DNA of 50,975 nucleotides from a phage, in the sequence record PZ871100.1. One strand, 5' to 3'. The stretch's first letter is position 1. Every line of letters starts with the position of its first letter. Under the pieces are notes generated by a model. The model was not told the origin of the DNA. It did no database searches and was given only the letters and a program-made list of their open reading frames with translations. The translations under genes were made by a program, and so were the position numbers. Below are positions 6,325 through 43,236 of this stretch, one piece after another.

Positions 6325-6407
6325 CACAAAATTATGTTGCACGTTTAACAAAAAATGCTATCATTGGTCCGTTACATACTAACGACCTTTATATATGGAG
6401 GAAGAAA

Positions 6408-20743: not shown

Positions 20744-20787
20744 ACTATACACGATCTTGCGGTTGGCGTTTAGCAAAAAGTGCTATT
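20744..20787 (-). promoter_or_regulatory. conserved-box promoter-like unit driving Cor-like lipoprotein gene
   Basis: Minus-strand reading AATAGCACTTTTTGCTAAAC then 17 nt then TATAGT (plus 20744-20749). Confidence 0.55.
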
Positions 20788-20899
20788 CTTGTTCTTTTTG
20801 TTATCCGGTGTTCTCAAATCTGCGGAGTCTTAAATTTAGCTCAAAAAGCGAACAACAATAGAGCGCAATACATACAGATAAATATATATACATACATAT

Positions 20900-21050
20900 A
20901 AATCAATAAGTTAGTAGTATATATATTCATGTTTGTTCTTTATTGTTATCTATGTTTTGTGTGATTTTGTGTGTCTGGTGATTTTTCTGTGGTTATGCAT
21001 GTGTCATTGGTTATATGTGTCTATATATCTATATCCGGCGCAAATTGAGG
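20900..21050. repeat. GT-rich noncoding element A (homolog of 42403-42600)
   Basis: Shares exact 16-mer AAATCAATAAGTTAGT (20900-20915) and diverged GT-rich tract with element B. Confidence 0.6.
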
Positions 21051-21156
21051 AACAAGAGAACAAAAGATAACAAAGATATTTATCAATCACTTACATGTAA
21101 GTTTTGTTATCTAAGTTGGTTATAACGTTATTAGAACAGAAAAAACAAAATAACTA

Positions 21157-21184
21157 TTGACTAAACGCATCAAATAGCTACAAT
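21157..21184 (+). promoter_or_regulatory. sigma70-like promoter (TTGACT - 16 nt - TACAAT) upstream of exonuclease gene
   Basis: -35 at 21157-21162, -10 at 21179-21184, about 30 nt upstream of the ATG. Confidence 0.5.
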
Positions 21185-28512: not shown

Positions 28513-28986
28513 TTAGCAATTAGTGCTTTCAGGTTTATACAGGAATCCGCCAGGTTCATAATCTGACATTCTTACCACTCGCAACATTTCACGCTTATCA
28601 CATCTCTTTGTGAGCGGTTTTCCATTGGAATCAAATCGCAGATCTGGACGGCAGAATGAAGCGCGATAACCTTGACAGCCATACTTTTTATAATCATTGT
28701 GCACCTTTTGAGCGCCAGCGGCTGAAATCATACCGCGAACTCGCCACTGATTTACAGTTTGCTGGCTAACGTTAAGACGTTTTGCCATTGCTGACACACT
28801 TCCGTAATACTCAATAAGGATGTCAAGGCGTGCTTTTAGTCCGGCTCGCACTTCATCTTTTAAAACATAGTATCCTGTAGGGCGCTTGCGCTTCTTCTTG
28901 TCCTTGCCTCGTCTTGTTCCGTTATTGCCATTAATTGTGCGCTTGTCAATCTTTCCTGTTGATACTGCGATTCGTTGTTCTTTCAT
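28513..28986 (-). CDS. helix-turn-helix DNA-binding protein (putative regulator)
   Basis: 157 aa; basic N-terminus KDKKKRKRP; HTH-like SVSAMAKRLNVSQQTVNQW; heads the minus replication block. Confidence 0.5.
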   Translation of the reverse strand: MKEQRIAVSTGKIDKRTINGNNGTRRGKDKKKRKRPTGYYVLKDEVRAGLKARLDILIEYYGSVSAMAKRLNVSQQTVNQWRVRGMISAAGAQKVHNDYKKYGCQGYRASFCRPDLRFDSNGKPLTKRCDKREMLRVVRMSDYEPGGFLYKPESTNC

Positions 28987-29075: not shown

Positions 29076-31121
29076 ATGATTCCAAACATTGAAAAGCAAA
29101 TATCAGCACTTGGCGAAGCGGTAATTAAATCCATTCAGGAGAGATTCACTGTTGGCGATATTGTGCCTTACCCTTACCAGTGCGTTGCATACGCTGAGAT
29201 CGCAAAGCGTATGAAAAATTATGAGCATCCATTCTTTGTTAAAGCGTCCGTATCTGCTGGCAAAACATTGATGTTTGCAATGGTTGCTCACCAGTGCCGG
29301 AAAATGGGCTTGAAAATGATGGTCCTTGCTCGCCAGGCTGAGATTGTAGATCAGGATTCTGAAGAGATAACAAATCTTGGTGTGCCGAACTCCATCTATT
29401 GTGCAGGACTGAAGACAAAAAGCGCATACTTTCCGATCGTTGTTGGTTCTGAGGGAACTGTAGTTAATGGACTGTTTAAAGCGCTTGGCGACTATGTTCC
29501 GCACGTTATCGGGATTGACGAATGTCACCAGGTGGATTGGGAAGACCTTGCCGACGCAATAGAGAAAGACGAATCATTTTTACAAATGACGACGAAGAAA
29601 GGCGAAAAAGTACCAAATCCAGATTATGACATAACAAAGGGAAGCAGGAACAGAAATACAGAGTTCCTGATTGGTGAGGATGGCTTGCCAATAGAGGGAA
29701 CAGGCCGCACACAATACACTGTCATTATCATGGAAATGATGCGCCGCTGCAGGAAAGCATATGGCCATGAACTGCGCATATTTGGCATGACTGGATCGGA
29801 GTTTCGCGGCGTAGTCCCGATCTTGGTAGAAGACAAAAAACAGAAAGGATTCTGGCGTGAACAGGTTACTAATATTGACACCAACTACCTGATCAAATTC
29901 GGTTCTGTTGTGCCAACAAATTTTGGCGACGTTGGCGATCTAGGGTATGACCTTTCAGAGTTTGAGGCATCCAGTGAGGATGGGGTTGCAGACTTTGACG
30001 CTAAAACGCTTCGCAGGATGGAACAAAAAATTCATGAAGAAGCGACCATGACAAAGCGCATCATGGCGAAAGTTCACGAGATCTGTAAAAACCGTAACGG
30101 CGTACTTGTGACATGTGCAGGAGAAAGGCATTGCAAAGAGGCTTCGGCGGCGTTGCCGCCTGGAACGACTTACAGGATCATTACTGGTAAGACTGGCGAT
30201 AACCAGCGCAAGGAGTGGTTGAAAGAAGCATACGAGGGAAAGGTTAAATACATCTTCCAGGTGCAGGCGCTAACTACTGGCGTTAACGTGCCGTTTTGGG
30301 ATACGTCTGTTATTCTGCGTAAGATTGGATCTCTTACGTTGCTGATTCAGCTTTTAGGGCGCGGAATGCGACTACTTAAGAAGTGGCATAAGGAGCAAGG
30401 ATTCCAGAAAGATGATCATCTCGTCATGGATTTTTCAGGAACGATGGACGAGCTGGGTGAGCTTTATTTTGATCCGATACTGGAACAGGCGCAGCACCAG
30501 AAGCGATTCAGAAATGGTAAAGATCCGAAGCCTTGTCCTGTTTGCGGAACTCTTAACAGCTATTATGCTCGTCGTTGTATGCACGTAGACGAAAACGGCA
30601 ACAGATGCGAGTGGTTCTTTAAATTCAGGACATGTGATGATCAGATTGACCCGCGCACTAAAAAGATTATTCATCGCGGTTGCGGAACTAAGAATGATAT
30701 TGCGGCCAGGGTATGCAGACATTGCGACATGTCATTGATTGACCCTAACGAGAAGTTAAGCGGAAAGCACTACACAAAAAACGACTGGTTCCAAGTGCAA
30801 TCTTTCGCGGTTGATATGACGAAAAACCAGAAAGGGATAATATTTAATTATGAGCTTTCCGATGGCATAGATACTTTCAAGGCGAGAGAGATATTTTTCC
30901 CTGAGTCTGAGAGCCAAATTTGCCGCGCAAAATGGCGAAGCGTTGCTCTTAAGCATATACCGGATCGCCGTGTCGCTGGTATGGTGGCGAGCTATCGCAA
31001 TGCGCGTAAAATCATGCAATATGTGAATCACATCATGCCGCCATCGCGTGTGACTCACCGCAAGACTAGCAAGGGCGAAGATAATTTGTACAAGAAGGAA
31101 TTTAATTATGGCAATGACTGA
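29076..31121 (+). CDS. SF2 helicase (DECH box) with C-terminal Cys-rich zinc-finger-like region
   Basis: Walker A-like SAGKTL, DECH motif GIDECHQ, C-terminal CPVCG...C...C clusters; start ambiguous (29052 or 29076). Confidence 0.75.
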   Translation: MIPNIEKQISALGEAVIKSIQERFTVGDIVPYPYQCVAYAEIAKRMKNYEHPFFVKASVSAGKTLMFAMVAHQCRKMGLKMMVLARQAEIVDQDSEEITNLGVPNSIYCAGLKTKSAYFPIVVGSEGTVVNGLFKALGDYVPHVIGIDECHQVDWEDLADAIEKDESFLQMTTKKGEKVPNPDYDITKGSRNRNTEFLIGEDGLPIEGTGRTQYTVIIMEMMRRCRKAYGHELRIFGMTGSEFRGVVPILVEDKKQKGFWREQVTNIDTNYLIKFGSVVPTNFGDVGDLGYDLSEFEASSEDGVADFDAKTLRRMEQKIHEEATMTKRIMAKVHEICKNRNGVLVTCAGERHCKEASAALPPGTTYRIITGKTGDNQRKEWLKEAYEGKVKYIFQVQALTTGVNVPFWDTSVILRKIGSLTLLIQLLGRGMRLLKKWHKEQGFQKDDHLVMDFSGTMDELGELYFDPILEQAQHQKRFRNGKDPKPCPVCGTLNSYYARRCMHVDENGNRCEWFFKFRTCDDQIDPRTKKIIHRGCGTKNDIAARVCRHCDMSLIDPNEKLSGKHYTKNDWFQVQSFAVDMTKNQKGIIFNYELSDGIDTFKAREIFFPESESQICRAKWRSVALKHIPDRRVAGMVASYRNARKIMQYVNHIMPPSRVTHRKTSKGEDNLYKKEFNYGND

Positions 31122-33150: not shown

Positions 33151-34266
33151 ATGAAGCAAATCAAAATCACAGATGAACAATTTATCAATGAGCGCAAGCA
33201 GGGAAAGACATATAAGCAGATCGCTAGTGAGTATGGCATGAACGTTCGCAGCATTGAGCGACGCGCGGCACGATTAGCAAAGCAAGGTAAAGTTACAACC
33301 ATCGGATCACCTGGTTTTGGTGTTACTGGAGAATCAAAGCTAATTGATAAAGATGGCAATGTGGTTATGACATGGATTAAGACAAGCAAAGACCGCGAAC
33401 AGTTAGAAGCATTAATGCAGGCCGCTATGGATGCATTTAGCGAAGAGGTTCCTCGACTTGATCCACAGCCAGAATCACAAAAGAATTATAGCGAGACGCT
33501 ATCACTGTATCCGATCTTTGACATGCACTTGGGCGCAATGGCGCATAAGCATGAATGCGGCGAGAATTGGGATACAGCAACAGCAGAGCGCGTAATGAAT
33601 AATTTCATTGATTATTCCATCCAGTGTGCGCCGGATAGTGAAAAAGCTGTTTTGCTGATTGGTGGTGATATGCTTCACAGCGACGGACTGGAAGCGGTGA
33701 CACCTGCAAGCGGTCACGTATTGGATCAAGATAGTAGATATGCAAAACTTGTTTATGTTGCCATCCGGTCAGTGCGTCGAGCAATTACAAAGCTGTTATC
33801 AAAACACAAAAACGTCGAGATTCAGATCATTGAAGGCAACCACGACCAAAGCGGCATGATCTGGTTGCGCGCAGCAATGGCGGCAGCATATGAGAATGAG
33901 CCACGAGTGCATGTTGATGTGTCTCCGCGAGTGGTTCATCACACACAATATGGCAAAACGTTCCTGGCATACCATCACGGGCATACTATCCGCAAACCTG
34001 AAACATTGCTAATGATGTGCGCGGCAGACTGGCGCGAAGACTTCGGCAATTCAAAAATGATGTATGCTCACGTAGGGCACTGGCATCATCAAACAGTAAC
34101 TGAAACAAGCCTGGGAATTGTTGAAGTGCATAGCACTATGGCGGCAAAAGATGCATATGCTGCGCGCGGTGGATGGCGTTCTCGTCGCCGTGCGGCTGTT
34201 ATTGTTTATGATAAAGAATACGGAGAAGTAGGGCGATTTATGCATTATCCAGAAATGGCTGGTTGA
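33151..34266 (+). CDS. HTH domain fused to calcineurin-like metallophosphoesterase
   Basis: N-terminal HTH-like KTYKQIASEYGMNVRSIERRAARL; phosphoesterase motifs DMHLG, GGDMLHSDG, EGNHDQ. Confidence 0.6.
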   Translation: MKQIKITDEQFINERKQGKTYKQIASEYGMNVRSIERRAARLAKQGKVTTIGSPGFGVTGESKLIDKDGNVVMTWIKTSKDREQLEALMQAAMDAFSEEVPRLDPQPESQKNYSETLSLYPIFDMHLGAMAHKHECGENWDTATAERVMNNFIDYSIQCAPDSEKAVLLIGGDMLHSDGLEAVTPASGHVLDQDSRYAKLVYVAIRSVRRAITKLLSKHKNVEIQIIEGNHDQSGMIWLRAAMAAAYENEPRVHVDVSPRVVHHTQYGKTFLAYHHGHTIRKPETLLMMCAADWREDFGNSKMMYAHVGHWHHQTVTETSLGIVEVHSTMAAKDAYAARGGWRSRRRAAVIVYDKEYGEVGRFMHYPEMAG

Positions 34267-34309
34267 ACTTTTAATCATTAAAATATAAATATAAATCATC
34301 AATTTAATT

Positions 34310-34339
34310 GGGCGTGGCATTTTGCTTCGCCCTTTTTTT
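34310..34339 (+). terminator. terminator-like hairpin before lysis cassette
   Basis: GGGCG...CGCCC hairpin then TTTTTTT. Confidence 0.5.
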
Positions 34340-34412
34340 ATTCCTTTTTGTGCGTTCAATGGTTAGGATACAATCAATTAATTGTTGACTTTTATCTACA
34401 GGAGATCTAATC

Positions 34413-34628
34413 ATGAAAGATTTTTTAAACGCTGCAACTTCCGGCACTGGCGGCGCGTCAATCACTGGCGCGGTAACTGGTCAAACAACTATTGCAATAG
34501 CCAGCTTCGTTTTGATGGCTGCATTTGGTATGTGGGGCGCTTATCTTCGCTGGCGTGATAGTAAGGCGCTACGTGACGCGCTTGAATGCGGTGATATTAA
34601 GAAAGCTATTGAGATCAGAGGTAAATAA
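34413..34628 (+). CDS. holin (putative, single TM)
   Basis: 71 aa; one hydrophobic helix; charged C-terminus; directly upstream of endolysin with ATGA overlap. Confidence 0.6.
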
Positions 34629-36342: not shown

Positions 36343-37926
36343 TTACCCCAGCAATGTTGGATTTACGAAAACAACGCCATTAATCACACAAATATAATTT
36401 CTTTCTTCAAGCATCGGCAGCAGTTGCGTTTCCATACGCTTCATTACGCCAGCCTGACCAACAAACGGCTTAACTTTTCGTGCAGCCTCATATATGGCGC
36501 GAACATTCAAGATTCCCTTGTTAGCCTTACCGTGTCGAGTGATAATCTCGATTAGTTTACCCATTTCAGCATCATCACCAGCATAGCCAGAAGCGTTGGC
36601 GGCGCTAATGTATGTTTTGCTCAACTCGCTAAACATCAGCAGTGCTTCCTGAACGGTTTCAACCTCAATCTCTTTCGACTTTTGAGGGTATCCGCCAGGA
36701 TTAAACCAATTGCGGATAGTGTGCAAAACCGAAGCAATCCTGATCACCTGCTTATCCATTTTGCCAAGCGCACCGCGCAGCATTGTATGCGAATACTTTC
36801 CGCCATCGGCAAGGTGCGGTTCCATCTCCTGACGAGCCATGTTAAGAACTCGCATTGCGGATTTGCTGATCTTAAGCTGGATGTTTGATTCACTCATGAT
36901 GTTATGGATCAGCTTGAAATATTGGCTTTTCAGTTCTCCATCAACAGGTTCATAAGTAGAATCACCGTTATCATCAACAAACTTTCTACGGCCTAAAAAT
37001 GATTCCTCACGCACAAGCAAATAACGCTCACTTACACCGATACCGCGAGATCCTGCATCCATGATGGCATTGATTGTTTCATCCTGGGCAATTACCGCCA
37101 TACAGCCAAGAGCTTTAAAACTCATATTGTTGTCAGCGTTTGCACGAGCTATAGAAACATGACCATGATCCCATGCTTTTAGCACAAGTTCGCTGTTGGT
37201 TTTACGTTCGCTATTGGCATATGTCAGACCTAAAAGGCTGTTAATACTTGTTGCCTCGTCTGAAATCACAGCAAAGTTACCCTGGCGATTGTTGATTCTT
37301 GCAAGTCCTTCCGGCGTTGTGTCGGACACAGGGAAAACGATGTCACACATCTTTTCCAGTTTTTCTTCCAGATCTTCTTTCTCCTGGTACAGGGATTCCA
37401 TATCAGCGCCGGAGCGCTCGCTTTTCATCTCTTTTGCAAGACCTGCCAACTTTGCCTGAATCTTTTTTCTTTCCTTCTTTCTCTGATCGTTAATTCTTTC
37501 CACTTCTGCAACCATTGGAGCAAGTGCCAGGCTGTTAACGGCAGATTTACCAGTTGAAGGAGGCTGGCTTGTGACAACATAAAGAGCGGTCGGCTGATCC
37601 GTTCCGTGATACTCAACAGTGAAGCGTCCAAGCATTGCAGCAGACACACATCCGATAAAATGCATATATGCCGATGATTCAGGAAATTGAACAGATCGAG
37701 CAATATTGCGCGCCAGCTTACCAACAATATCAACATCATTGCCGAGAGAAATTACAGGGTAGCGATCGTTTCCGTTATTAACATCATTAACCTCACCCCA
37801 AAAGCTGGACGATTGACGGTATCCGTTTGCCTGAATGGACACGCGCACAGGAGACAATCCTTGTGCATCAGCTAATTCGATAATTTGTTTTGGTGTTAGT
37901 TTATTGGTTTCAAACGAAAAATTCAT
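36343..37926 (-). CDS. P-loop NTPase, replication-associated (DUF3987-like, putative)
   Basis: ATG 37926 with AAGGAG RBS; Walker A-like PPSTGKS; acidic coiled region; own promoter unit. Confidence 0.4.
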   Translation of the reverse strand: MNFSFETNKLTPKQIIELADAQGLSPVRVSIQANGYRQSSSFWGEVNDVNNGNDRYPVISLGNDVDIVGKLARNIARSVQFPESSAYMHFIGCVSAAMLGRFTVEYHGTDQPTALYVVTSQPPSTGKSAVNSLALAPMVAEVERINDQRKKERKKIQAKLAGLAKEMKSERSGADMESLYQEKEDLEEKLEKMCDIVFPVSDTTPEGLARINNRQGNFAVISDEATSINSLLGLTYANSERKTNSELVLKAWDHGHVSIARANADNNMSFKALGCMAVIAQDETINAIMDAGSRGIGVSERYLLVREESFLGRRKFVDDNGDSTYEPVDGELKSQYFKLIHNIMSESNIQLKISKSAMRVLNMARQEMEPHLADGGKYSHTMLRGALGKMDKQVIRIASVLHTIRNWFNPGGYPQKSKEIEVETVQEALLMFSELSKTYISAANASGYAGDDAEMGKLIEIITRHGKANKGILNVRAIYEAARKVKPFVGQAGVMKRMETQLLPMLEERNYICVINGVVFVNPTLLG

Positions 37927-37953
37927 TGGTGATAACTCCTTTTTGATGCGGCA

Positions 37954-37997
37954 ATAATACCGCACCAATGCTACCCGCATTTAACAAAAAATGCTAT
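37954..37997 (-). promoter_or_regulatory. conserved-box promoter-like unit upstream of P-loop NTPase gene
   Basis: Minus-strand ATAGCATTTTTTGTTAAAT, 18 nt, TATTAT (plus 37954-37959). Confidence 0.55.
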
Positions 37998-38215: not shown

Positions 38216-38598
38216 TTATACATAGCCTCAAACAAATGACAGCCACCAGCGGAAAATCCAACTTCTTCGCGGTACAGCGTCCAGCGGTCGCCAGCTTCAT
38301 CAAACACATAACCAGCAACAGCGCCAAGCGCGCGGCCTTGCTCAATCTGGTAGCGCTTTCCTTCTTTGAAATGCTTTTTGCAAGGGATCTTGTGATCTAC
38401 AAAGGTGCATTTAATTGTTTTTGTCTTGATATGACGATAGTCAGACTCAACCGCGTTTTGCCACTTGCTACCATTTGTAATGCTCTTTACCTGGAATTGT
38501 TCCAACTCGATCACATCATCGCTACCAGCAATTTTTTCGTATACGGTTTTATAGCGCCCGTTCATCAAAACGTTGGTTTTATTGCAGATAACTTTCAT
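38212..38598 (-). CDS. hypothetical protein
   Basis: 128 aa; AAGGAG RBS; promoter unit upstream. Confidence 0.45.
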   Translation of the reverse strand: MKVICNKTNVLMNGRYKTVYEKIAGSDDVIELEQFQVKSITNGSKWQNAVESDYRHIKTKTIKCTFVDHKIPCKKHFKEGKRYQIEQGRALGAVAGYVFDEAGDRWTLYREEVGFSAGGCHLFEAMYK

Positions 38599-41756: not shown

Positions 41757-42025
41757 TTCTTGATCTCCTCAGCAATAAACTTCAGGACTTTGCGCAAAAA
41801 CACTTCATTATTGATGGTCGCTGGCAATTCTTCTTTTACTTCTTGCGGCAGGTAAACGTTGCCATGCCAGGTTAAGCAATCGTAGTTGATACGATAAGAG
41901 CAAAGCCACTCGCAATCGTTATCCGCTTCCCAAATGCAGAGTTGCAGAACATCGCCGAAATTCTCAACAGTCAGGTCCAGACCATGACGCTTGGCGAAAT
42001 TGAAAGTGGTTTTGCTGATGTTCAT
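41753..42025 (-). CDS. hypothetical protein
   Basis: 90 aa; AGGAG RBS; promoter unit and conserved leader upstream. Confidence 0.45.
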   Translation of the reverse strand: MNISKTTFNFAKRHGLDLTVENFGDVLQLCIWEADNDCEWLCSYRINYDCLTWHGNVYLPQEVKEELPATINNEVFLRKVLKFIAEEIKK

Positions 42026-42064
42026 TTGCTTTCTCCTGATTGGTATCTCGTTTCGATGTATGCA

Positions 42065-42107
42065 TTATGACAAATACAGTCAGGCACGTTTTAACAAAAA
42101 GTGCTAT
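42065..42107 (-). promoter_or_regulatory. conserved-box promoter-like unit (first of the minus small-gene block)
   Basis: Minus-strand box (plus 42088-42107), 17 nt, CATAAT (plus 42065-42070), leader CATCGAAACGA. Confidence 0.6.
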
Positions 42108-42402
42108 TTGCTGACTGGTCATTATTCCATATATTCCATTAATCAGGAATAACAGGAATAACTCATTCGCGATCACCTGGATTGGGAGACTTTGAGTTTG
42201 GTCAATTTTAATCAAGTGATTAACTTTTTGTGTGGAGGGGATAGAGAAACGCGATCCTCTCGCACCCTTTCCGGCAATCCTGGCGCGCAACATGTTCATT
42301 ATGTTTCCAGCCGTTCACGCAAATAAGCCTCCGCAGTTCTTCCACGTTTCATGCTGTCATGCACACAAAAGAAACAATGTAAAATCTATATAAATACACA
42401 TT

Positions 42403-42600
42403 AAATCAATAAGTTAGTTATATATGTATTTATATTTGTTTCTTATTGTTCTTGTTGTGTGATGGTTATTGGTATATGTTGCGATTTTTGTGTTGGTGGA
42501 TATTGATTGTTTATTGTTCGATTTGGTTGATGATTATGGTTGCTCATGGTTGCGTATGATTCTTGATGTATTTATGTATATATCCGCGAAAATTCGCGAA
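42403..42600. repeat. GT-rich noncoding element B (homolog of 20900-21050)
   Basis: 16-mer AAATCAATAAGTTAGT at 42403-42418, GT-rich tract, inverted repeat CGCGAA aa TTCGCG near 3-prime end. Confidence 0.6.
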
Positions 42601-42707
42601 CAGCCACACAGCCAAAAAACATGATGAGGATTCTTTTGAAATCATGCACTTAACTGCGAATTTTGTTTCCGCGCAATCTCCACACGTATAGCGAACAATT
42701 AGAACGC

Positions 42708-42737
42708 TTGACATAGGCGCGGCGTGGTGGCAACATT
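42708..42737 (+). promoter_or_regulatory. possible sigma70-like promoter (perfect TTGACA, weak -10) with adjacent inverted repeat
   Basis: TTGACA 42708-42713; weak -10 CAACAT/AACATT about 17-18 nt downstream; GGTGG...CCACC inverted repeat overlaps. Confidence 0.3.
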
Positions 42738-42774
42738 GCAACCACCAAAAACAGAGCAAATAGGAGTTACACCC

Positions 42775-43236
42775 ATGACCATGACAAGCAAGGAATTTTG
42801 CGATATGTTGCGAGTTAATGCAGCCTCACTAGCTAACGGGGATGTTAGCGAACTGCAAATCAAGGAGCTTGACTTGCAATGTAATATTGCGCCGGAAGAC
42901 TTGAGGAAAATTAACGCCTCATACATCCGAACGATTATGAATCGAACGCCGGAGGTGAAAGCCGTTGGCGTGGTGAAGGTTGAACGCGTTCGAGGCGATG
43001 CTGACATTCCTGATTGTTATCGCGTAACAATTAACCAGAATCCAAAGCGCCGCTTGCTGACAGATGAAGAACTGCCAAAACTTGAAAGTAAGTGGCGAGC
43101 AAAGTTTATTGCTCAACTGCTTAAAACACAGCCGCGAATCAGCGATCTGGAAGGTGAGCGCCTGGAAGGTGCGGCAATCGCACTTGAGCGAATGAATGAA
43201 ATGCTTAACGATATGGTAAAGATGGAGGATGAATAA
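42775..43236 (+). CDS. hypothetical protein (first gene after noncoding region B)
   Basis: ATG 42775 with AGGAG RBS; 153 aa. Confidence 0.45.
   Translation: MTMTSKEFCDMLRVNAASLANGDVSELQIKELDLQCNIAPEDLRKINASYIRTIMNRTPEVKAVGVVKVERVRGDADIPDCYRVTINQNPKRRLLTDEELPKLESKWRAKFIAQLLKTQPRISDLEGERLEGAAIALERMNEMLNDMVKMEDE

Follow-up and report, generated by a model that had tools for sequence, protein, structure and literature searches.

A conserved non-coding module present twice in a T1-like phage genome has the layout of a candidate replication origin

What does the long non-coding gap between two diverging gene arrays do in a T1-like phage? The window analysed here, 50,975 nt of phage DNA (sequence record PZ871100.1), is a complete T1-like genome (Drexlerviridae, Tempevirinae, near Hanrivervirus) that begins with the small terminase gene. 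The question is raised by its gap B (42026-42774; 749 nt from start codon to start codon), which separates an array of small genes reading leftward from 42025 from another reading rightward from 42775. An earlier sequence-only reading had correctly placed a GT-rich element, element B, between these two arrays and had proposed an early control region, an origin or a packaging-site neighbourhood. Here we report that element B and a second element 21 kb away, element A, are, by sequence comparison, copies of one conserved non-coding module found across T1-like phages. Of the three proposals an origin is the best supported, because the module combines a duplex stability minimum with phased, opposed repeats, the genome encodes an MCM-like helicase, and the layout is shared with the origins of staphylococcal pathogenicity islands (SaPIs); the function itself we infer. 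We put the probability that A and B form an origin-type module for DNA unwinding and helicase loading, possibly also serving as an operator array of early promoters, at roughly 45%.

Element A lies in a gap of 500 nt, flanked by a cor-like lipoprotein gene and by recombination genes (the operon after it encodes an exonuclease, Erf and SSB), and both elements are sited between diverging transcription units. The annotation of T1 has the same two gaps, of about 700 nt (B) and 527 nt (A). These lengths are consistent with the claim that gap B is the largest non-coding gap. The 16-mer pointed out earlier, AAATCAATAAGTTAGT, is present exactly at 42403-42418 and at 20900-20915 and nowhere else in the genome even with two mismatches allowed (chance expectation 0.03). 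Element B was rightly called a second copy, and the homology reaches well beyond the 16-mer (42382-42493 against 20880-20990, 74% over 112 nt, E = 1e-17). No third copy of the module was found by self-comparison of the window.

Orthologous gaps were collected from IMG/VR through their flanking proteins (43 loci on the B side and 44 on the A side), and those of T1, TLS, MSK and aaroes were added from GenBank. The core was found by distant blastn in 139 Drexlerviridae records, and no relatives of it were found in the plasmid collection. Read side by side, the orthologues have one layout at both gap positions: three TGTTNY repeats about 10 bp, or one helical turn, apart, a YTCCGCA box, two inverted RRAACA repeats and a 60-bp A+T-rich core, then two to four TGTTNY repeats, a tract of 100-200 nt whose G+T-rich strand is that of the downstream gene, a second TCCGCA-like box, two or three inverted units, an ATCAA...CTTA site and more units adjoining a TTGACA-17-TATAAT promoter. 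Counts over 64 distinct orthologous gaps, against a background of 0.35 per 55 nt, show the alternating orientation of the repeats: TGTT prevails over AACA from -130 to -50 relative to the core (117 vs 22), AACA over TGTT from -50 to +5 (72 vs 24), TGTT again from +50 to +105 (138 vs 21) and AACA from +170 to +260 (136 vs 50). Orthologues with no more than 45-99% identity in their flanking proteins have the left YTCCGCA box at the same position. In gap A of the window, AGAACA alone occurs five times (0.29 expected).

The sequence of the repeats differs between lineages. In T1 they read GTTACA/TGTAAC, a sequence with 24 copies in the genome, 7 of which lie in gap A (p = 1e-8), and in locus L084 they read TGTAATC/GATTACA. 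Since the repeat varies by lineage and the layout is constant, the pattern points to a phage-encoded DNA-binding protein that binds the repeats and co-evolves with them. Phages with 100% identical helicases (among the top 80 helicase loci, a set without the T1-type and L084 lineages) have somewhat different TGTTNY variants, which fits degenerate recognition.

The cores also stand out physically. Ranked by nearest-neighbour energy in windows of 60, 100 and 200 bp, the core of A is the least stable duplex of the genome (-0.967 kcal/mol per step) and the core of B comes second (-0.979); the genome mean is -1.362 (standard deviation 0.08), and both cores lie about 4.8-4.9 standard deviations from it. 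In T1, which belongs to another subfamily, the orthologous sites (214-273 and 30010-30069) again rank first and second, at 5.5-5.8 standard deviations. The core of B is the centre of a palindrome (self-match 42362-42461, 68% over 100 nt) that, folded as single-stranded DNA, reaches -16.6 kcal/mol (z = -3.8; 0 of 200 shuffles as good); a z of -1.9 or lower was found in 8 of 13 B orthologues tested, and in T1 and the A copies the fold is weak. Third in order of instability comes the region 34250-34430, which holds a rho-independent terminator-like hairpin with a T-run, a consensus match for integration host factor (IHF) at 34372 and a TTGAC promoter before the holin gene; it was considered as a third copy and rejected, being unrelated to A and B.

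To the right of each core, the G+T-rich tract described earlier is real and measures 100-140 nt. Among all 120-nt windows, those over the two tracts are the most skewed (81.7% G+T at 42433-42552 and 75.8% at 20911-21030, ranks 1 and 2; genome mean 0.50, standard deviation 0.06), and in the tract of B, 42437-42575, T stands at alternate positions. In 53 of 69 orthologous gaps the 120 nt right of the core are at least 60% G+T, and the left side is neutral. Alternating purine-pyrimidine (Z-DNA-like) content is modestly raised (ranks 1 and 3, 3-4 standard deviations). Cumulative GC, TA and keto skews follow gene orientation and are therefore uninformative on replication; we rejected them as a signal.

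Within both cores lies a perfect match to the IHF consensus, which we take to be WATCAANNNNTTR after Craig and Nash and Goodrich et al. (42404-42416, AATCAATAAGTTA, and 20901-20913). The genome has 11 such matches against 4.4 +/- 1.8 expected, and four of them fall within the two gaps. Even where the flanking proteins share only about 45% identity, the 16-mer that carries the match keeps 14-15 of its 16 positions. An exact consensus is found within the core in only 25 of the 64 orthologous gaps, T1 and TLS not among them, and at the second, right-hand site in 10. IHF binding is therefore plausible for the lineage of this phage and is not a universal feature. Scanning IMG/VR with the bare 16-mer was uninformative, as only a handful of the listed contigs are known T1-like contigs and most hits, in other contigs, look like chance. 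Cores come in two types, of which type 1 carries the IHF-like 16-mer and type 2 reads AAAAATAAGGATTATTTATTTATATGTATC (L009 and L015 compared with L053 and L093); some genomes have a type 2 core in B and a type 1 core in A.

The replication genes of the phage encode a zinc-ribbon primase, a Cro/YdaS-like helix-turn-helix (HTH) protein, a superfamily 2 (SF2) helicase and a DUF3987 protein. The last of these (36343-37980, minus strand) is, by fold search, a SaPI-Rep-like helicase in which an MCM-like AAA+ core is joined to a C-terminal winged helix at residues about 450-527; a sequence search of it against PDB gave no match, and the fold search alone was informative. Element B starts about 4.3 kb upstream of this gene and element A is about 15 kb away.

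SaPI origins are described as consisting of 6-12 penta- or hexanucleotide iterons and a central A+T-rich region, with at least two iterons per side in opposite directions, and the C-terminal winged helix of the SaPI Rep helicases recognises the iterons (PMC9371898). The module resembles them in its short repeats of 5-7 bp, at least two on each side of an A+T-rich centre and opposed. Nine clear TGTTNY/RRAACA units are present in A, in three triplets, along with promoter-proximal ones, and about 8-10 more degenerate units in B. The centre coincides with the stability minimum, and its flanks are opposed in the family-wide counts (AACA 72:24 on the left, TGTT 138:21 on the right). As in SaPIs, a cognate helicase with MCM-like AAA+ core and C-terminal winged helix is encoded, and so is a separate primase.

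Based on this likeness, we propose, as possible rather than probable, that T1-like phages start replication at a two-site origin, one site beside pac and one before the recombination genes, where the MCM-like helicase would load itself at opposed repeats around an IHF-bent unwinding element and the G+T tract would direct helicase or primase loading one way. A phage DNA-binding protein would occupy the repeats; for this role the DUF3987 helicase, with its C-terminal winged helix, is the best candidate, and the Cro-like HTH protein (28513-28986) is an alternative. IHF would bend the core and bring both repeat arms together. Negative supercoiling accumulates between diverging transcription units according to the twin-domain model and, given that A and B lie between such units, would help the core to open behind the diverging promoters. 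Helicase hexamers might then load on each side of the core, as proposed for SaPI Rep proteins, with the G+T tract as a polar zone of single-strand loading or priming. Alternatively, the composition of the tract could be a mutational footprint of an often single-stranded strand, on which G+T would be enriched through C-to-T and A-to-G deamination. Through the repeats beside the -35 boxes, the binding protein would probably tune both early promoters as well.

Other known origins share parts of the arrangement. Like ori and crr of P4, the module consists of two separated cis elements with short repeats, and the phage has a primase with a P4/T7-type zinc ribbon (Pfam Zn_Ribbon_Prim), which the annotators of T1 describe as similar to the alpha protein. 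The P4 iteron, the octamer TGTTCACC, to which the C-terminal domain of alpha binds, resembles units of the form TGTTCAC/TGTTCAT. Element B holds TGTTCAT, CGTTCAC and TGTTTCC, and the exact octamer (TGTTCACC / TTTGTTCACCCC) is seen only in orthologue L014; the resemblance is a lead and not a test. The phage differs from P4 in that its helicase is MCM-like (superfamily 6, SF6) and separate from the primase, whereas alpha is a superfamily 3 (SF3) helicase, and no alpha-type SF3 helicase is present. Neither a comparable A+T core containing an IHF site nor a G+T tract is known from ori and crr of P4. The origins of pSC101, R6K (gamma) and lambda are similar in their phased repeats, IHF consensus, adjacent easily melted A+T element, strand-asymmetric composition of the unwinding element and plausible dependence on nearby transcription. 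Unlike them, the module belongs to a phage without a Rep or O-type initiator gene, and its repeats are far shorter than 17-22 bp iterons and form a palindrome instead of a one-sided array.

Several points weigh against an origin. Every functional step of the model is one that we infer. Two copies per genome are unusual for an origin and differ from SaPIs, as does the position: SaPI origins lie directly downstream of rep, whereas neither copy adjoins the helicase gene and the module sits between diverging promoters. The module also goes beyond SaPI origins in its outer repeat arrays, its TCCGCA boxes, its sites matching the IHF consensus and its long G+T-skewed tract. The proposed function of this tract is without precedent in SaPI or P4 origins, and binding of the module's repeats by the helicase is a prediction. 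The TGTT/AACA repeat core is short and degenerate and stands in T-rich sequence, and composition explains part of the counts; within gap B of the window, strong enrichment is seen for none of the 6-mers, the best uncorrected p being about 7e-4. In 39 of the 64 gaps, T1 and TLS included, the core lacks the IHF consensus. The A and B cores of one genome are no more alike than cores of different genomes (permutation p = 0.13, so that concerted evolution within a genome was not significant), and two core types can coexist within one genome. Finally, a purely transcriptional role would account just as well for the repeats beside the promoters.

Table 1. Coordinates of the two module copies and of neighbouring features in the window
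Feature	Position	Strand	Description
Element B, whole	~42293-42736		module copy next to the probable pac block
Left repeat triplet, B	42293-42318	+	TGTTCAT (42293), TGTTTCC (42302), CGTTCAC (42312); spacing 9-10 bp
YTCCGCA box CCTCCGCA, left copy, B	42328-42335	+	TCCGC at 42330-42334
Inverted repeats CACACAAAAGAAACA, left core edge, B	42362-42376	+	AGAAACA at 42370
Imperfect palindrome of ~100 nt, B	42358-42465	.	centred on the 16-mer; arms hold oppositely oriented repeats
A+T-rich core, B	42377-42436	.	candidate DNA-unwinding element; second least stable 60-bp duplex window of the genome
16-mer AAATCAATAAGTTAGT, B	42403-42418	+	42404-42416, AATCAATAAGTTA, is an exact match to the IHF consensus WATCAANNNNTTR
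Right repeat triplet, B	42437-42459	+	TGTTTCT (42437), TGTTCTT (42447), TGTTGTG (42453)
G+T-rich tract, B	42437-42575	+	T 53%, G 27%, A 14%, C 6%
TATATCCGCGAAAATTCGCG, B	42576-42598	+	right-hand TCCGC box (42583) and lineage-specific 14-bp palindrome (42585-42598)
Inverted repeats right of tract, B	42596-42621	+	GCGAACA (42596), CACACAG, AAAAACA (42615)
Second IHF-like site AATCATGCACTTA, B	42640-42652	+	1 mismatch to the consensus
Promoter-proximal repeats GCGAACAATTAGAACG and rightward sigma70-type promoter, B	42691-42736	+	-35 TTGACA 42708-42713, -10 CAACAT 42731-42736
Element A, whole	20790-21184	+	second copy of the module
Left repeat triplet, A	20790-20814		TGTTCT/TGTTAT/TGTTCT
CTGCGGAG, A	20820		after left triplet, before core
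Core, A	20867-20926		16-mer at 20900; least stable duplex window of the genome
Right repeat triplet, A	20934-20958		TGTTCT/TGTTAT/TGTTTT
G+T tract, A	to ~21030		right of core
TCCGGCGCA, A	21034		right of G+T tract
Inverted repeats, A	21049-21072		GGAACA/AGAACA/ATAACA
IHF site TATCAATCACTTA, A	21081-21093		perfect consensus match; counterpart of the 42640 site in B
Promoter, A	21157-21184		TTGACT-16-TACAAT, found by consensus scan; AGAACAGAAAAAACAAAATAAC repeats precede TTGACT
Block specific to gap B, probable pac region	42110-42260	.	outside the shared module
Leftward promoter of small-gene array	42064-42108	-	21-nt repeat AATAGCACTTTTTGTTAAAA at 42089-42108, -10 CATAAT 42064-42069
21-nt repeat sites, examples	42090-42107 (-), 20769-20786 (-), 43493 (+), 43957 (+), 6344 (-), 10104 (-)		

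The two short inverted repeats stressed by the sequence-only reading are present in B, and they are lineage-specific and not the informative features. The first, CGCGAA-AA-TTCGCG (42585-42598), is perfectly symmetrical over its 14 bp; among the more distant orthologues read the symmetry is not retained, and only the TCCGC(G/A)AA part recurs. The GGTGG/CCACC repeat consists of TGGTGG (42725-42730) and CCACCA (42742-42747), 6-bp arms 11 nt apart that flank the putative -10, and is absent from the orthologous gaps read in other lineages. That reading had missed the IHF consensus within the 16-mer, the repeat arrays and the palindrome, roughly 100 nt long, that has the 16-mer at its centre.

The proposal of a packaging-site neighbourhood was right for B, as the genome ends of T1, TLS and MSK lie in the orthologous gap. 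They fall 135-213 nt left of the A+T core, in a block equivalent to 42110-42260. In the window this block contains TTATTCC/GGAATAA repeats at 42122-42161, a match to the IHF consensus at 42210-42222 and, at 42234-42250, the G-rich box GGAGGGGATAGAGAAAC. Coordinate 1 of T1 is a record convention with a 2800-bp terminal repeat annotated beside it, that of TLS starts with AGATTT and was assigned to pac after restriction mapping, and the PhageTerm start of MSK is at 36,862. Since these starts fall in the equivalent block, 42110-42260 is the probable pac region of this phage. In gap A there is no such block, and the 21-nt promoter repeat described below runs straight into the first TGTT triplet.

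It might be argued that the module itself is part of the packaging signal, an assembly site for terminase and IHF next to pac, much as in lambda cosB or P1 pac, where IHF sites with flanking short repeats are typical. The genome ends in gap B agree with this, and pac has been placed in this untranslated region in the SU57 paper (PMC7718038). The ends, however, lie left of the core, within a block that has repeats of its own and is missing from copy A, and comparison of the two gaps thus identifies the shared module as something other than pac itself. No packaging start has been reported at element A, 21 kb away, and to our knowledge the older literature on T1 reports only one pac site; we regard a packaging role of the module as quite improbable. 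Phage aaroes annotates a 62-aa hypothetical protein in the probable pac block (window 42111-42299, minus strand; L001 3080-3268). Its counterpart frame in the window continues through the promoter repeat into the next gene (open reading frame 41964-42299), and it is therefore doubtful that this is a real gene.

The suggested early control region gained some support. The TTGACA box is present at 42708-42713 and aligns with near-consensus sigma70 promoters of relatives, which at the same place in the orthologous gaps have TTGACA, 16-17 nt and then TATAAT, GATAAT or AATAAT; the -10 of the window is weak. Its putative promoter reads TTGACA-17-CAACAT, 9/12 overall, and was missed by the consensus scan because the -10 matches at only 3/6 positions. 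These promoters are the basis of the most serious competitor of an origin, namely that the module is an operator or architectural region at which a phage regulator, such as the Cro/YdaS-like HTH protein (28513-28986), and IHF switch the early and the diverging leftward promoters, with no role in replication. Both copies lie directly upstream of near-consensus sigma70 promoters (42708-42736 and 21157-21184), repeats adjoin the -35 boxes (TTGACA is preceded by GCGAACAATTAGAACG in B, TTGACT by AGAACAGAAAAAACAAAATAAC in A), the phage has a gene for a conserved HTH regulator, and IHF-assisted promoters are common in phages. At about 400 nt, however, the module is far longer than known operator regions, and regulation alone leaves unexplained the extreme stability minima in two distantly related genomes, the opposed repeats around an A+T centre and the strand-skewed tract. 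We therefore consider a purely transcriptional role unlikely, if well worth keeping in view; it is compatible with an origin and does not exclude one, and the two roles may well be combined.

The leftward arrays are served by a different element. A 21-nt direct repeat, aaATAGCACnnnTTGnTAAAA, has been described for TLS (PMC11447400), and the module, which is not described there, is distinct from this known repeat of TLS and T1, which lies outside it. As ATAGCACnnnTTGnTAAA, the repeat has 22 sites in the window against 0.7 expected, and one at the left edge of each gap (20769-20787 and 42089-42108) drives the leftward array. In gap B the -10 CATAAT lies 22 nt downstream of the TTGTTA hexamer of the repeat, with no -35 hexamer; in the B-gap orthologues read, TTGTTA is likewise followed after 22 nt by a -10-like hexamer (CATAAT, TACATT), and a -35 hexamer is lacking there too. 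By its sequence, the repeat looks like an activator- or UP-type class of phage promoter. Copies at 6344 and 10104 are antisense within the structural-gene block, and in L009 (contig 3300045988_040344) an extra gene and a second copy of the repeat are inserted in gap B.

The composition of the G+T tract is conserved and its sequence is not: most blast homology stops inside or just before it, at 42450-42461. Two further explanations start from this tract. One views the module as a recombination hot spot or mosaic joint, with the cores as homology "linkers" and the tract favouring strand exchange in the manner of Chi or of RecA-preferred sequences. In most of the related genomes listed, homology ends at the border of core and tract (query 421-432), different genomes carry the core types in reassorted combinations, the operon for exonuclease, Erf and SSB follows element A, and the tract of B contains a near-Chi octamer, GTTGGTGG (42496-42503). 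Yet of 60 tracts no more than 8 contain TGGTGG, where shuffles give 3.5 +/- 1.7, and this count is inflated by relatedness and too slight to build a Chi-like function on; the sole exact Chi of the window is on the minus strand at 38243; and the phased, oriented repeats and the stability minimum are left unexplained. This explanation seems to us improbable.

The genome itself is, from sequence comparison, a mosaic with a junction near the module, since its helicase shares 99% identity with that of phage herni (P0001, genome of 50,971 bp) and its gap B is nearest to that of aaroes (94%, against only 82% to herni over its left half). Twenty GenBank records of the MG0656xx series named "Campylobacter phage" (host Campylobacter jejuni) are 85-93% identical to this coliphage-type region. 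They look like T1-like enterobacterial phages, which makes the host label questionable.

The other explanation is that the tract encodes a small hydrophobic peptide or a non-coding RNA. G+T-rich frames do translate to hydrophobic residues, and stop-free stretches reach 48 codons. No frame, however, is kept in close relatives, where 2-nt indels occur and the stop-free length varies from 24 to 41 codons; the ATG of element A is lost in near-identical phages, and the tract sequence is itself unconserved. The plus-strand RNA folds no better than shuffles (z = -0.25), and the minus-strand value of -2.4 stems from the DNA palindromes. Rfam 15 gave no match at gathering score over the whole window and none at E <= 1 over 41950-42850. 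There is no sign of a structured RNA, the module is not coding, and a peptide or RNA product is very improbable.

T1 has been studied since the 1940s, and the genome papers of TLS in 2024 and of SU57 in 2020 report no origin, the former having searched for oriC-type features and lambda-type iterons (PMC11447400) and the latter for oriC-like sequence only (PMC7718038). The module is not described in the accessible literature on T1-like phages, and the T1 genome paper (Roberts et al. 2004) may mention these A+T-rich regions. What annotators had lumped as one untranslated region resolves into three neighbours, a probable pac block, an origin-like module and an early promoter. For an origin, the module offers two precise candidates of about 60 bp each that are conserved across the family. 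If the transcriptional reading alone holds, the module would be the main control region of two early operons. If the origin reading is true, no origin would have been defined before it in Drexlerviridae, nor in any virulent phage using an MCM-like (DUF3987) helicase, and that suggested partner would tie common virulent coliphages to the self-loading mechanism of the staphylococcal islands.

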